Positions 4,406-48,630 of a stretch of DNA of 64,000 nt are shown one piece after another. The DNA comes from a virus (Duplodnaviria > Heunggongvirae > Uroviricota > Caudoviricetes). A model generated the notes under the pieces. It worked only from the letters and a program-made list of their open reading frames with translations. It ran no database searches and was not told the DNA's origin. The position numbers and the translations under genes were made by a program. Location: IMG/VR virus record IMGVR_UViG_3300029702_000002. One strand, 5' to 3'. Every line of letters begins with the position of its first letter. Within the stretch, counting starts at the first letter, position 1.

Positions 4406-4466
4406 GTGTTTTTCTCTTATCGTTTAGTAACTACATTCTTACACAAATTAGGTAAGTATTTACCTA

Positions 4467-7779: not shown

Positions 7780-7879
7780 GTGTTTTTCCTAATGCTTAAA
7801 CAAGTTGTTTTCTTATTGGCTTTATTGTGATGTGGCATAAAAGGGGAGCAAGCTAAACGTAAAGGTGCAAACTCTCTAT

Positions 7880-9442: not shown

Positions 9443-10090
9443 TTACTGCTTGTTGTAAACAAAACCAATATCTTTCTTGTGAGGCATATCTGCTGCGGAA
9501 AAAGCTGCGATCTTCGCGAGTCGATCACATATTTCATTTTCACGATGCCCGGCGTGACCTTTAACCCACTTCCAGCGAACATTATGTCGACTTGCGGCCT
9601 CATCCAGACGCTTCCACAGATCAACATTCTTTACCGGTTTTTTGTCAGAAGTCATCCATCCATTGCGTTTCCACCATTTCATCCACTGTGTCATGCCGTT
9701 TTTCAGATACTGGCTATCAGAGTGCAAAATAACGTTGCATGGATATTTCAAACGCTCCAGCCCGATAAGTGCCCCCATCATCTCCATGCGGTTATTGGTG
9801 GTGCTATGAAAACCATCTGAGAACTCGCGTTCCTCACCACGATACTGGAGAACTATACCGTAACCGCCCGGGCCACCCGGATTTTTAAGGCAAGAGCCAT
9901 CACTGAAGATTTTCACGGTTTTAAGCTGGGGATTGAACTCTACGACAGGCGTTGTGGAATTGGTGCGGGGAGAATTTTTGTTTTTGGCTTTTTTGCGAGT
10001 TTTTTCTTGCGATCGGGCTGGTGTCTTCGTCGTCATATAAACTCCTGAATCAAGCGCCGCGCCGATTTTTTTCCTCGCGCGTGCGCACAC
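9443..10090 (-). CDS. rnhA: ribonuclease H (RNase HI family); true start probably internal Met near 10036
   Basis: VKIFSDGSC...GYGIVL...VILHSDSQY...KGHAGH..NE.CD motifs of RNase HI. Confidence 0.85.
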
Positions 10091-10624
10091 GCGTGCGTGT
10101 TAATAATTATTAAAATAAACAAATTACTTCCCAGAACAGGTTTTTATAAACCTGAACTGAACGAACGAAGTGAGTGAAGTTCACCTCGAACGAAGTGAGA
10201 GGTTGTCTTTTCAGGTAATACTCTCCCAGGGAGGTGAGTATAAAAATCCCTCACCAACCTGGTCGTTTCATAACCTGAAAAGTTATGGTCTAAGTCTACT
10301 GCCAGCTTAGACTTGGGAAGTTATGGATGACAGCACCCCAGAACCGAGATCTTCCCACACTTTATGAAGGGGAGTACTGGATTCAACCTCTCGAAACACC
10401 CCAGACTCGACAATCATAAAGTGACCCTTGTCTCCGCTCACTTTGGTTCCCCCTTCCCCGACACCTAAACGGCACCAGTTCTACGCTGGTAGTGAGCTTT
10501 TTTTAAACCTGACGCCAGTGACGCTTACCCCCACCCATCAGGTCGAGTCTCCAGTCTACGACTGGAAACTATCAGATCTTAGCACTTACAATTCACTTTA
10601 TGAATAGTTTGTACTTATCTATCA

Positions 10625-10876: not shown

Positions 10877-10957
10877 AAAATCGATTTTAAAGCGTCTGGG
10901 AAGGGGTTCTAGTGGATTCTGTAGTGATGTTCAGGTCTGGAGTCTCTGATACAAAAC

Positions 10958-11016
10958 AGCCTGCTTCCGTATATTAATAATTAATATGTAGTTATTTATA
11001 TATACAGAAGCAGGCT
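10958..11016. repeat. ~60-bp palindromic element (copy 1 of 2): GCCTGCTTCCGTATAT ... ATATACAGAAGCAGGC around an AT-rich spacer
   Basis: Imperfect 16-bp inverted repeat; near-identical element at 58256-58312. Confidence 0.6.
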
Positions 11017-11037
11017 AATTACAGACGCCAGAACAAA

Positions 11038-11631
11038 CTAAGCAGCCTTCTTTGATGGTCTTTTTTTCCTGATCACATTCGCAGGATCATACCCTCCCAG
11101 ACTTTTCATGACGTCCAAAGGGATCTTGCTTATAGAGTGCCCAGCGTCCTGACAGAATCCTCGAAAAACAACGAGCATACTGCCACCTGGGTTGATGTTT
11201 ACTTCTACCTGACCCAGATTGACGTCAGGCTCGACAAACGCTACGCGGCCACCAGACAGAATAATCGTCTCATTCGCACACTCTGTTGCACGCTCATACC
11301 ACTTTGTATCTAGGGATTGAGGAATTAGCATCACTGTTGTAACTCCGCGAGCCTGCTCACGTATAGCCGCATCAATCCAGGGGGAGATTTTGGAGTAGGG
11401 TGGATTGAGGAAGGCAATTGTACCTGGCTGTCCCCATTCAGATTTCAAAGCATCACGCTCAACGCCTATGAAATTAGGCAGCTTTGCATTGTCCTTGTTG
11501 CAGGCAACGTCAACATCAAATGTCACTCCAAGATAACGTTGAATGGCAGAAAACAGCCAGTCAGGTGTTCTCCAGAGGTCACGAAGAGAGTTGTCGCGCT
11601 TTCGCTGTTTGATTTTTTCGGCTGCAATCAT
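11038..11631 (-). CDS. phage Dam-type DNA N6-adenine methyltransferase
   Basis: LWRTPDWLF ... FDVDVACN ... FLNPPY motifs. Confidence 0.8.
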   Translation of the reverse strand: MIAAEKIKQRKRDNSLRDLWRTPDWLFSAIQRYLGVTFDVDVACNKDNAKLPNFIGVERDALKSEWGQPGTIAFLNPPYSKISPWIDAAIREQARGVTTVMLIPQSLDTKWYERATECANETIILSGGRVAFVEPDVNLGQVEVNINPGGSMLVVFRGFCQDAGHSISKIPLDVMKSLGGYDPANVIRKKRPSKKAA

Positions 11632-26759: not shown

Positions 26760-26985
26760 TATTCACATATCCACAGGATAGATCCTAATAAAGAGATCCA
26801 TAGATAGATCCTTGTATAGATCAAATAAGATCCCCGATCGCTGTAAGCCGCGCCACGACTGGTCTGAAGCCATGTTCATGTATGCTGTCAGCGGTAATTG
26901 ATAGTCTGTCAGCGGTTCACCGTATGCTGCCAACTGTTTTTGGTATTCTGTCAGCGGCAAATCAAGTATGCTGTCAGCGGTTGAA
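26760..26985. promoter_or_regulatory. plasmid-type replication origin region: DnaA box, GATC cluster, five iterons
   Basis: ATATCCACA at 26767-26775; six GATC sites within 26782-26839; TATGCTGTCAGCGGT-like repeats at 26881-26981. Confidence 0.7.
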
Positions 26986-27000
26986 TGACAAAGGTGTCCA

Positions 27001-28096
27001 CATGTCCACAAAAAATAAAAAAGGTAAAAATAACAAAGAAGTAGAAGATAATCTCGACAACTTTGAAGAAGGTTCCCTTGAATTGTACACAGGGGAACTT
27101 GTCCCTAATAGCAACAATACAGTCCAACCAATTGCGTTGATGCGGCTGGGATTGTTCGTGCCCACGCTCAAGGGGACAAAATACAGCAAGCGTAACAAGC
27201 CAAATGAGATCGATGCTTCAAAGGAGCTTGTTCAGCTCGAAGTAGCCCGTTCTGAAGGCTATTCCGATATCAAGATAACCGGTCCTCGTCTCGACATGGA
27301 TCATGATTTCAAAACGTGGGTGGGCGTTGTGCGTTCGCTGGCAGAATACGGCGAACCTAACGGTCGTGTCGAGTTAAGCATCACGAAATTTGCGAAGTTT
27401 TGTGGCTATCCATCGTCACAGATCCGCAAAACACTCCGCGACCGGCTTACAAACAGTCTTTTGAAGATCATGCGTACAACTCTGTCTTTCCAGAGAACGT
27501 ATGAAGAAAAGAACGTCGACGGCTCTAACAAGATCTCGCTTCTGATGGTGCACCTCATCAATAGCGTGGACTACAACGAGCAGAAAGATACGGTGGTGTT
27601 CTATGCAGAACCGAAGCTGGCCGAACTATATCGCTTTGACCATAAGGTTCTTTTGCAGTTAAAGGTTATCAATAAGCTACCACGCAAAGAAACAGCACAG
27701 GCTCTGTACACCTTCATCGAAAGTCTTCCAACCAAGCCTGCGCCGGTGTCGCTTGCTCGATTGCGTGCGCGACTCAATTTGAGTAGCAGGAATGTCAGCT
27801 CGCAGAATCAGACTATACGCAACGGCTTAAAAGCTCTCCAAGATTTGGGTTATCTCGAATACAGCGAGATTAAACGAGGGCGGTCGATCTATATCCAGAT
27901 TCACAGCCGCAATCCAAAACTCAAAGTCGCACCGCCAAAACCTGAAGACATCGAACCCAAAAAACTAGATGAGAAAGCTGGGGAAATTGATGCCAAACAG
28001 AACATTATCAACAAGATAACCGAACTTTCGCAGAATTTGACGCCTGAAAATATCAAGATGATTGAGATCCTTTCCAATAGTCTCAAACTGCTTTGA
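27001..28096 (+). CDS. repA: iteron-binding plasmid replication initiator RepA; start moved to ATG at 27001
   Basis: ORF 26882..28096 trimmed because its 5' extension overlaps the iterons; flanked by iteron arrays; recalled resemblance to P1/RepFIB RepA (NSNNTVQP..ALMRLG). Confidence 0.8.
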
Positions 28097-28628
28097 TATG
28101 CTGTCAGCGGTGAAATGTATGCTATCAGCGGCTATTTTTCTGAAAAGTATGCTGTGAACGGTTAAAGATATGCTACCAGCGGTATAGTGAGATGAACGTA
28201 TGCTGTGGGCGGTAAATCATCTATCACCACTCAATGCTCTGTCATACCTCCCCAGTGGTTACTAACCTCGAAGAGTGCATTCCATATAGGTTTGCGCTCA
28301 CTAACATTCTATTGCTATTGCGCTGATTGCTTGTAGTGAAAGGCATTTATTGCCTGCTGCTCCCTGATAGAACGTATGCTGTCAGCGGTGTTTTATTGAG
28401 GAATTTTTGTTTGGATATGCTATCAGCGGTAATTAATGGTATATGTCAGACCTTCGTATGCTGCCAGCGGTAATTTTGTTCTGGTTATACCCATACCGGT
28501 ACACATTATTCATGCAATGTCTTAAGTATGCTGTCAGCGGTAAAAAATCGAGTAAAGTATGCTGTGAGCGGTGAGATAGACTCTCGATATGCTATCAGCG
28601 GTAGTTGATTGTGTATGCTGTCAGCGGT
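28096..28628. repeat. downstream iteron array, 12 copies in three clusters (copy-control type)
   Basis: Copies begin at 28096, 28117, 28147, 28168, 28199, 28374, 28415, 28457, 28526, 28557, 28587, 28613. Confidence 0.85.
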
Positions 28629-28675
28629 GACGACTATGAAATATGACTGCGGAACGTGCCGCAGTCAGTTTGCAT

Positions 28676-30195: not shown

Positions 30196-30286
30196 GTTTT
30201 CTTATTTTTTTAAACAAATTGTTTTCTTAATAAGATAATTGCGATAAAAAAGGCGTCCAACTGGACGCCTGAACTTTTTAGGGGAG

Positions 30287-31321: not shown

Positions 31322-31413
31322 GTGTTTTCCTATGTGGTTGTTATGCGAAAATAATAAGTAAGTGCTTATATATTTTCAAGAGATAAAAAAGGCGTCCTGT
31401 GGACGCCTTGTGT

Positions 31414-32762: not shown

Positions 32763-33751
32763 TACCTTTCGAATGGAAGAACAAACACTTCAAGGTCTTC
32801 AAGGAACGAACGGAAATTCAGCTCGTAGCACAGTTGCTCGAATGCTTTCACGTCACGATTGCCTTTGATTGTTTCGATTTCGGTAGGCGGAAACTTCGTC
32901 TCAATCAGGTTCATTAGCGTGATGTTTCTCTTGAACGCTTCGAGCATTCGACAGCCTGTTTTCTCGTTGAAGGCATTCTTCGCTAGTTTGTTGAAGGCGG
33001 TCTTATGACGCCCTTTATTAACCACGATTGAGCCGTCGTTGATGCCGCGTACCATCGTTGCGACACTTCCCCATTCATGCAGCAGCTCTTTCGCACCGCC
33101 AGCACCAATGCCACCAACACCGCTAATGTTGTCCGAGTTATCGCCTTGTAATGCTTTTGCTTCCAAAAATGCGCGAGGCGTGGCGAATCCTGTCAGCTCC
33201 GCAAATTGCTCAAAATTAACCTGCTTGTTTTTGGCGTCTTCACGCAGGCTTACCCAGCTTACGTTTTCACGAACTAACTGAAGCCAGTCGCTATCGCCTG
33301 TTAACAGATAGATGTGTTCAACGATTGGCTGCGGTGCAATGCTGGCTACCAGCAGCCCGGCCAGATCATCCGCTTCTGCATCTTTTGCAATGAGTTGGGT
33401 AACTCCAAGCGCGGTCATCATTTTGAGGATGTATGGCTTCTGGATAGCAAAGCCTTCCTTCATCTTTTTCATATCAGGATCGTCGTCGCGATTTGCTTTG
33501 TAGTCCGGGTAAAAGTCGCGACGCTTGTCACTAAATCCATCCCAAAGAATCATAGGTCGGGCATGGAGGATGGAGGCATAACGACGGACGTTCTTAACAA
33601 AGCCGAAAGCAGCCTGTACTTCCATTTCGCCGTTGTGCAATTTGTCAGATTGTTGGTGGTAATAACCCAGGCTATTGCCATCTACGAAGAGATAATTCAC
33701 CGGTACATTCCTTCCAAAAAGTAAGGCGTCCGTAGACGCCTTACTGGTCAC
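32756..33751 (-). CDS. 5'-3' exonuclease / flap endonuclease
   Basis: LFVDGNSL, LTGDSD, GDNSDNISGVGGIG motifs. Confidence 0.85.
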   Translation of the reverse strand: MTSKASTDALLFGRNVPVNYLFVDGNSLGYYHQQSDKLHNGEMEVQAAFGFVKNVRRYASILHARPMILWDGFSDKRRDFYPDYKANRDDDPDMKKMKEGFAIQKPYILKMMTALGVTQLIAKDAEADDLAGLLVASIAPQPIVEHIYLLTGDSDWLQLVRENVSWVSLREDAKNKQVNFEQFAELTGFATPRAFLEAKALQGDNSDNISGVGGIGAGGAKELLHEWGSVATMVRGINDGSIVVNKGRHKTAFNKLAKNAFNEKTGCRMLEAFKRNITLMNLIETKFPPTEIETIKGNRDVKAFEQLCYELNFRSFLEDLEVFVLPFERYC

Positions 33752-48330: not shown

Positions 48331-48417
48331 TGGCGGAGAGTAATGGAATCGAACCATCATCGCTTGCGCAATGGGACGGTTTTCAAGACCGCTTGAGCAC
48401 CATGCTCCCTACTCTCC
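48331..48417 (-). tRNA. tRNA-Ser (anticodon UGA), class II with long variable arm
   Basis: Manual fold: acceptor GGAGAGT/ACTCTCC, anticodon loop CUUGAAA, long variable arm, T-loop TTCGATT, encoded CCA. Confidence 0.75.
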
Positions 48418-48630
48418 AATTGTTGTGGTGCCGGGTGCTTCCCGGTGTCCTTTGGCTGGTTATCCACCGTGGACGGAGCCAATAGTCATCACAAAGGATC
48501 AATATAACCATTTCCCCGCGTGCGCTTAGCCGCATTCACCACAACGAAAAGAGCACTGTATGACGTTTGCACGGACTTACGCTTCAAACAGGGCAGTCTC
48601 GGCGGTTCTCAATGCTCTTTCCTGTTGTGT

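Follow-up and report, generated by a model that had tools for sequence, protein, structure and literature searches.

A triplicated, terminator-like hairpin at fixed positions in SSU5/pHCM2-type phage-plasmids

Introduction

Palindromic sequences that act on transcripts or on DNA have been described in several phages and plasmids. In phage lambda, the sib sequence lies past a terminator and completes a longer structure on read-through RNA only, and the RNase III sites of T7 occur as several related copies, forming long intergenic hairpins in polycistronic transcripts. Integron attC sites carry the core boxes R' and R'' (GTTRRRY), and the centromere repeats of N15 and the C1 operators of P1 are dispersed palindromic cis sites of phage-plasmids.

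Phage-plasmids of the SSU5/pHCM2/pMT1 type are common and carry resistance and virulence cargo, and their transcriptional organisation is essentially uncharted. We analysed a stretch of 64,000 nucleotides from a member of the Caudoviricetes (IMG/VR record IMGVR_UViG_3300029702_000002; the whole stretch is hereafter called the window) together with its relatives, following up the original prediction of a palindrome present there in two copies. Our results suggest that this element is most likely a family-specific, triplicated terminator-like hairpin, ordinary in kind and conserved as an element. Its placement at three block boundaries would provide a first map of transcription units in these replicons.

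Structure of the element

We detected two quasi-palindromes of ~55 bp in the window (Table 1), with the common arms CCTGCTTCYGTATAT / ATATACRGAAGCAGG. Both copies have the 15-nt arms CCTGCTTCCGTATAT and ATATACAGAAGCAGG, in which 14 of the 15 positions are complementary; at arm position 9, a C.A mismatch on the plus strand corresponds to a G.U wobble on the minus strand. Copy 1 and copy 2 are 82% identical over 56 nt, and the predicted duplication of a ~60-bp palindrome with near-identical arms and AT-rich centres was verified at its coordinates, the arms being 15 nt long. Five matches to the arm pattern (<=3 mismatches) were found in the window against 1.21 expected, a number that none of 100 shuffles reached, and the sharing of arms between the two copies is far above chance. 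Because nearly all genes of the window lie on the minus strand, we describe the element on that (coding) strand.

Folded as RNA, the minus strand reaches -32.1 (copy 1) and -30.8 (copy 2) kcal/mol, with z of -5.7 and -7.3, and the plus strand folds more weakly, at -29.6 and -24.9 kcal/mol; the DNA hairpins of the copies have energies of -14 to -17 kcal/mol (z -7 to -9). RNA folding gives a stem of 17-18 bp, a small internal loop and then a 6-7-bp apical helix, which amounts to the ~20 bp of near-continuous double-stranded RNA expected of an RNase III site. The stem base on minus-strand RNA, CCUGC/GCAGG, provides the G+C-rich, stable stem-loop expected of terminators. In a MAFFT alignment of 47 distinct hairpins, the apical motif TAAGT-N-ACTTA is conserved and its central base is free.

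Each copy is flanked by a weak outer inverted repeat, TCTGG...CCAGA, 18-27 nt beyond the arms. This outer repeat was found at all three sites that the element occupies in complete relatives, with some compensated pairs at site 3, and at site 1 of SSU5-type relatives it is the perfect pair GTCTGGGAGTT / AACTCCCAGAC. RNAalifold did not retain the outer stem at site 1, and TCTGG/CCAGA 7-mers are not enriched in the window; TCTGGG alone clusters near copy 1. This hexamer occurs in 8 and 2 copies on the two strands of the window, against ~12 expected on each, and is under-represented away from this cluster. Three of the eight coding-strand hexamers fall at 10090-10620, a region of ~530 bp with short ORFs only, which is bounded by the RNase H gene on one side and by the 76-aa ORF after copy 1 on the other.

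Table 1. Coordinates of the element, its neighbours and the gene blocks (window positions unless another record is named)
Feature	Position	Strand	Remarks
Copy 1 (site 1), inner hairpin	10960..11014	-	arms 10960-10974 and 11000-11014; 25-nt AT-rich centre
Copy 2 (site 2), inner hairpin	58257..58311	-	arms 58257-58271 and 58297-58311; 25-nt AT-rich centre
Outer inverted repeat, copy 1, left arm	10934..10942		plus-strand reading GGTCTGGAG; imperfect pairing with 11025-11034
Outer inverted repeat, copy 1, right arm	11025..11034		plus-strand reading ACGCCAGAAC
Outer inverted repeat, copy 2, left arm	58234..58242		plus-strand reading TTCTGGTGG
Outer inverted repeat, copy 2, right arm	58331..58339		plus-strand reading CGCCCAGAA
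T-rich tail of copy 1	10949..10959	- (coding)	CTGTTTTGTAT
T-tract of copy 2	58246..58256	- (coding)	TCTTTTAAAAG
Dam-type adenine methyltransferase gene	11038..11631	-	PF05869, E 2.5e-38; copy 1 after its 3' end
SSU5_038 homologue (phrog_2500)	57400..58140	-	opens helicase/primase block; copy 2 upstream
Conserved block, copy 2 to SSU5_038 homologue	58154..58213	-	operator-like palindrome and weak sigma-70-like pair
GIY-YIG gene	58423..59190	+	PF22945; variable cassette on the opposite strand, own terminator 59205-59239; no part in the function of the repeat
Small parB-like gene	59243-59602	-	within 59243..60270 unit
parA	59602-60270	-	within 59243..60270 unit
Site 1	SSU5 78304-78360		3' of Dam gene
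Site 2	SSU5 33458-33513		between variable cassette downstream of parAB and SSU5_038 homologue (helicase/primase block)
Site 3	between SSU5_130 and terS		spans start of SSU5 record
Block A (putative)	terS to par region		virion, lysis and partition genes
Block B (putative)	SSU5_038 to dam		replication and nucleotide metabolism
Block C (putative)	small ORF after dam to SSU5_130		accessory and regulatory genes

Distribution among phage-plasmids

The 601-nt stretches around each copy are 99.5-100% identical to 'Escherichia phage CMS-2020a' (CP053388.1), and the window is also near phages Cyrano and PhiR41_1, all of them SSU5/pHCM2-type phage-plasmids of about 108 kb; the window itself is an E. coli phage-plasmid of this type. 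Complete relatives carry three copies at fixed places (sites 1 to 3), and the third copy for the window's own genome type lies outside the window, at CP053388.1 61526-61580. Loci for counting each site were sampled through neighbouring proteins, independently of the element's sequence. All 83 loci whose upstream sequence was long enough had site 2, in each case 106-120 nt upstream of the start codon. Site 3 was present in 74/74 evaluable loci and precedes terS by 115-117 nt, or by 94-95 nt in one clade, and recognisable arms were found at site 1 in 69 of 78 evaluable loci. The plasmid pMT1 retains site 3, and in the distant L291 contig site 1 alone was found, PLSDB being without relatives of L291 or L292.

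The search for further copies in relatives and in the host, suggested along with the original prediction, was productive: besides the third site, 801 PLSDB plasmids match the element, 760 of these non-mobilizable, and the element is almost never found in the E. coli chromosome. The plasmids come from seven host genera: Klebsiella, Escherichia, Enterobacter, Yersinia (pMT1), Salmonella (pHCM2 type), Citrobacter and Cronobacter. Among complete E. coli genomes, 260 of 5426 (about 5%) have the element, with 995 of the 997 places plasmid-borne. The two remaining places, the only chromosomal matches among the 5426 genomes, are at ~954492 in NZ_CP103694.1 (the chromosome of E. coli ST12468) and may represent an integrated or mis-assembled phage-plasmid. 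Full-text literature searches returned no description of the element. Against Rfam 15, the window matched nothing but tRNAs at gathering thresholds, and at permissive E-values the sites gave no hits beyond generic miRNA-precursor hairpins, which scored 15-26 bits where the thresholds are 46-117.

Some sequence records end at the element. The SSU5 record NC_018843.1 (position 1; 103263-103299) starts within the copy 3 loop, and the ends of several IMG/VR contigs (L137, L150, L241 and L340) lie at or beside a copy. These ends are most simply explained as assembly breaks at a three-copy palindrome and, short of end-mapping, are not to be taken as physical genome ends. The hairpin in three copies would account for the frequent three-place breaks in short-read assemblies of these replicons.

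Gene context and block layout

The gene context given in the original prediction was borne out by Pfam, with Dam (PF05869) beside copy 1 and GIY-YIG (PF22945) beside copy 2. Copy 2 precedes the start of the SSU5_038 homologue by 116 nt, lies 112 nt from the GIY-YIG start, and separates the upstream, co-directional parA/parB-like unit from the replication genes. Neither Pfam nor PHROGs gave a function for the flanking small proteins or the SSU5_038 homologue. Within the highly conserved 116-nt stretch following copy 2, the operator-like palindrome TAGGTAGTTACTTACTTA (58154-58171) directly precedes the ribosome-binding site, and TTCCAA-17-TATCAT (58185-58213) forms a weak sigma-70-like pair. The promoter scan did not flag this pair; judged by its sequence, it would be a promoter.

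The operator-like palindrome has the form TARGTA-N6-TACYTA, with 15 matches (<=1 mismatch) in the window against 0.22 expected, including positions 4449, 9428, 11644, 21196, 25895, 49534, 52887, 58154 and 62901. In the copies that we checked, before Dam and before the SSU5_038 homologue, it stands just 5' of the ribosome-binding site, and before Dam it is conserved even at 61-75% Dam identity. It looks like a set of dispersed operators of one regulator, or a common 5'-UTR hairpin. We also detected a second intergenic palindrome, AGAAAACAA-N-TTGTTT, with 10 matches (<=2 mismatches) against 0.45 expected. It occurs at 7798, 8527, 18759, 30212, 57376 and 60306 (minus strand), and is found upstream of the helicase, parA and other genes. 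In all relatives it also stands before terS, 40-60 nt 3' of site 3, with almost no variation.

The three copies would divide the circular, nearly unidirectional genome into three blocks (Table 1), a layout that we deduce from their positions. At the border of two of these blocks, the segment between the parB-like gene and copy 2 (58312-59242) is a hotspot for alternative cargo. The window and PhiR41_1 carry the GIY-YIG gene there and Cyrano carries CYRAN_30; SSU5 has three genes, one of them a DUF2971 gene. In L046 the segment encodes another protein, of 218 aa, and in L064 two further ones. In comparisons of the hotspot with L001 (3311-4138), L004 (31523-33435), L046 and L064, the swapped segment reaches the hairpin base. 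The hairpin marks an accessory-gene hotspot beside parAB and offers a practical typing signature.

Other features of the window include a minus-strand tRNA cluster at 48331-48783 (Ser-TGA, Thr-TGT and Asn-GTT), of which ARAGORN called three and Rfam two. To its 5' side, a region with short ORFs only (48800-49560) contains a long hairpin at 49243-49332 with 24-nt arms (96% complementary) and a 42-nt loop, followed by TTTTGTTC on the minus strand. At least 14 iteron-like repeats, GTATGCTGTCAGCGGT, were detected at 26876-28635 in two clusters ~1.1 kb apart, presumably the plasmid replication origin.

Evidence for a probable coding-strand terminator

The element lies where intrinsic terminators are expected, at 3' gene ends and in sense orientation. 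The hairpin starts 22-27 nt past the stop codons of SSU5_037, SSU5_088 (Dam) and SSU5_130 in SSU5, 23 nt past the Dam stop in the window and 24 nt past CYRAN_30 in Cyrano. The 9 nt past the coding-strand stem contain on average 5.5 T (site 2) and 4.4 T (site 1), compared with 2.4 in the background and with 3.9 and 2.8 on the opposite strand; site 3 has no T-tract, its 2.9 T per 9 nt being background. Site by site, the U-tract reads TCTTTT at site 2, where it is retained in nearly all variants while the sequence downstream differs (TCTTTTAAAAGA, TCTTTTTCTATG, TCTTTTACGACC and others), and it is mostly present at site 1 (CTGTTTTGT), whose orthologues have the tails CTTTTTAAG, CTTTTCCTT or TTTTTTGTA. 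A hairpin scan returned the two window copies as the most stable hairpins with a T-rich tail on the minus strand, copy 1 at -27 kcal/mol. The tails on the plus strand are CTAATTAC and CATAACTT, and since both the T-tract and the G.U wobble fall on the minus strand, the putative terminator looks unidirectional. Of the bidirectional terminator that had been proposed, the terminator is supported, but apparently in one direction only.

Base pairing within the stem has been maintained during divergence. In the 47-hairpin MAFFT alignment, pairing was kept in 96% of cells compared with 37-54% with a slid partner, and three pairs were altered on both sides, a count that 13 of 500 shuffles reached. Among 67 distinct arm haplotypes, the 14-bp core is nearly always paired, and changes on both sides that keep Watson-Crick pairing were found at positions 2, 5, 6, 7, 8, 9 and 10, with CCTGCTTTCG/CGAAAGCAGG and CCTGCGTC/GACGCAGG as examples of compensated arms; the arms of the distant L291 contig, CTTGCTCCCATA/TATGGGAGCAAG, have three compensated pairs. 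This covariation is real but modest, because most of the sequences are close relatives. Non-Watson-Crick transitions, read on the coding strand, comprise 48 haplotype instances of G.U in 10 site/position classes and 13 of C.A in 4 classes; by independent classes (10 vs 4) the strand bias is not significant alone, and we regard its lean toward a coding-strand hairpin as suggestive, not decisive.

Variation among relatives points in the same direction. Those with 64-72% Dam identity have no hairpin at site 1 and keep a right-arm remnant only, and beside this remnant stands an unrelated canonical terminator, AAGAGATTCAGGCAC-TTAC-GTGCCTTAATCTC followed by TGTTTTTCT. In the divergent L134 clade, the T-tract is lost together with arm pairing in L374-L376, whose arms are mismatched, and is retained as TTGTTTGTAG or TTTTTTAAAG in L377-L379, whose arms are intact. 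Elsewhere in the window, three short minus-strand terminators (33721-33744, 31389-31409 and 30251-30270) have the common stem AGGCGTCC/GGACGCCT and good T-tracts, and this trio is a second family of paralogous terminators in the genome.

We judge it somewhat more probable than otherwise that the element is a terminator or insulator, that is, a coding-strand RNA hairpin that punctuates three co-directional blocks of genes at their 3' ends. The GC-clamped stem (CCUGCUUC/GAAGCAGG) stands directly before a U-rich tract at sites 1 and 2 and would act there as a factor-independent terminator. Copy 1 would stop the block ending in dam, and copy 2 would keep transcripts that run out of parAB and the cassette from entering the helicase/primase block, which has a conserved promoter/operator region of its own; a strong stop between parAB, which we assume to be expressed in plasmid life, and the replication genes would be a sensible insulator. 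The hairpin at site 3, within a longer nested palindrome and without a U-tract, is probably a weaker or conditional stop or a processing hairpin. The element's sequence, copy number, fixed positions, pairing and flanking T-tract are observed, and from them we infer both the stopping of RNA polymerase at the copies and which promoters would restart transcription. The original prediction had named, as an outcome that would speak against it, only two copies at which transcripts simply terminate, and half of this applies: copies are present in hundreds of replicons, not two, and transcript ending is still the likeliest function. As a plain terminator, the element would be a useful annotation and not a discovery.

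Alternative explanations

Several features fit a plain terminator poorly. One alternative is a hairpin serving mainly RNA processing or stability, in which ~25 bp of double-stranded RNA, as modelled, might be cut by RNase III or block 3' exonucleases and so segment polycistronic transcripts. The 55-nt hairpin lacks the compactness of terminators, with -dG/L of 0.39-0.50, and an approximate form of the classical terminator discriminant gave -48 and -21 for the window copies compared with +7 to +48 for short terminators in the window. A consensus terminator scan called neither window copy, because its loop limit is 8 nt, and site 1 of the SSU5 type carries C.A and T.C mismatches on the coding strand. 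Along with the poor discriminant, processing is favoured by the length of the duplex, by the outer inverted repeat at all three sites, and by site 3, which has no T-tract and instead lies in a nested palindrome of ~130 nt (-52 to -62 kcal/mol), some of whose outer pairs are compensated. By analogy with lambda sib/tI, the outer TCTGG/CCAGA stem, with its 3' arm beyond the T-tract, would form on read-through transcripts only. However, the T-tract is conserved at sites 1 and 2, a canonical terminator replaces the element in a divergent clade, and the outer stem at site 1 was dropped by RNAalifold, so that we consider processing an unlikely, if credible, main function. Less probable still is a mobile element of the MITE or REP kind, or a cleavage or homing site of the adjacent GIY-YIG nuclease, both of which had been put forward for the palindrome. 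Small size, terminal inverted repeats and the nearness of one copy to the GIY-YIG start would suit these readings, but the sites are fixed and orthologous, the window copies have no flanking direct repeat as target-site duplication (coding-strand flanks TAG|...|CTG and ATG|...|TCT), and no presence/absence polymorphism was found between close relatives. We rejected a MITE or host repeat on account of the fixed sites and the near-absence of the element from E. coli chromosomes. A GIY-YIG target was likewise rejected because the element is present without the gene, in SSU5 and Cyrano, which have other genes there, and in pMT1. Several other cassettes alternate with this gene, which lies tens of kb from two of the three sites. 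Taken together, mobility and nuclease targeting appear highly improbable.

The conservation of the arms suggests another kind of explanation, in which the copies form a set of cis sites. Between the L134 clade and the window, identity is 86-100% for the arms but 53-62% for the flanks and 77% for the adjacent coding DNA, and within the clade the 14-nt arms are identical despite diverged flanks; this clade also has a different terminator in place of the ordinary one that lies upstream of Dam at ~700 nt from site 1. The three paralogues share one consensus yet vary independently within genomes, and gene conversion as the cause of their likeness was rejected because the variants are site-specific. 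Near-invariant arms beside unalignable flanks are compatible with a factor that reads sequence. Such a phage-encoded RNA- or DNA-binding factor might recognise the arms (CCTGCTTC...GAAGCAGG) and/or the apical TAAGT-N-ACTTA with its free central base, for example as an antiterminator opening the three blocks in lytic growth or as a repressor-type roadblock, and the placement of sites at the boundaries of structural, replication and accessory blocks would agree with this. Yet ordinary orthologous terminators are equally conserved between the window and SSU5 (17-24 of 19-24 nt), which is why we rejected orthologue conservation as a sign of special constraint for that pair, and it is only against the more distant L134 clade, where one control terminator was compared, that arm conservation stands out. 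The distant L291 and L292 moreover change their arms by compensated pairs, as structure-only constraint predicts, and no candidate factor was identified, so that recognition by a specific factor seems rather improbable. If it were true, it would give a handle on the plasmid-to-lytic switch. A little more doubtful is a cis site acting as a cruciform or palindrome in DNA, whether a lytic origin, a pac site near terS with two secondary sites, or a recombination junction. The AT-rich centre between GC-richer arms should favour cruciform extrusion, consistent with the DNA hairpin energies, site 3 is fixed before terS in genomes whose TerL is of the Terminase_6N/Terminase_3 type, homology of the window with Cyrano/SCU-175 stops exactly at copy 2, and the cassette 5' of site 2 varies between relatives right to the stem base. 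On the other hand, the strand-specific T-tract and wobble bias are unexpected for a double-stranded site, as is replacement by an ordinary terminator; GC skew does not switch at the sites, homologous recombination gives such a junction at any conserved island, and pac sites are normally unique. Considered as a whole, a set of factor-read cis sites, whether a switchable stop opened on induction or a cruciform-type DNA site for replication, packaging or module exchange, is unlikely without being negligible. If true, the stops would isolate the structural, replication and accessory blocks in plasmid life and be opened together on induction.

Comparison with known systems

A terminator-like hairpin, the reading that we prefer, resembles the intrinsic terminators of enterobacteria and their phages in its stem-loop with a GC-rich base after a stop codon and in the coding-strand T-tract at sites 1 and 2, and its stem likewise evolves via G.U and compensated pairs, with a canonical terminator in its place in some relatives. 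It differs from them in its length of ~55 nt, its AT-rich upper stem and its poor discriminant, and in that the same sequence stands at three sites, one of them without a T-tract. The outer TCTGG/CCAGA repeat resembles the read-through-only structure of lambda sib/tI; compared with the RNase III sites of T7, the internal loops are different and the outer stem is weak in the window copies.

Among repeated elements, REP/BIME sequences and MITEs are similar as short, imperfect, intergenic 3' palindromes whose sequence is conserved between copies, but the element has three copies at fixed orthologous sites in one replicon family and shows no evidence of mobility. Integron attC sites are likewise imperfect palindromes, 55-60 bp in size, that close a variable cassette on its 3' side, as the element does at site 2; the attC core boxes, however, are not evident in the element, no integron integrase lies nearby, the cassette is single, and the other two copies are not beside variable cassettes. 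Finally, the N15 centromere repeats and P1 C1 operators are also few, scattered copies of one palindrome, and one copy of the element lies downstream of parAB. Unlike those sites, the element has arms ~40 bp apart centre to centre and strand-specific flanks, and it is located at the 3' ends of genes rather than at promoters.
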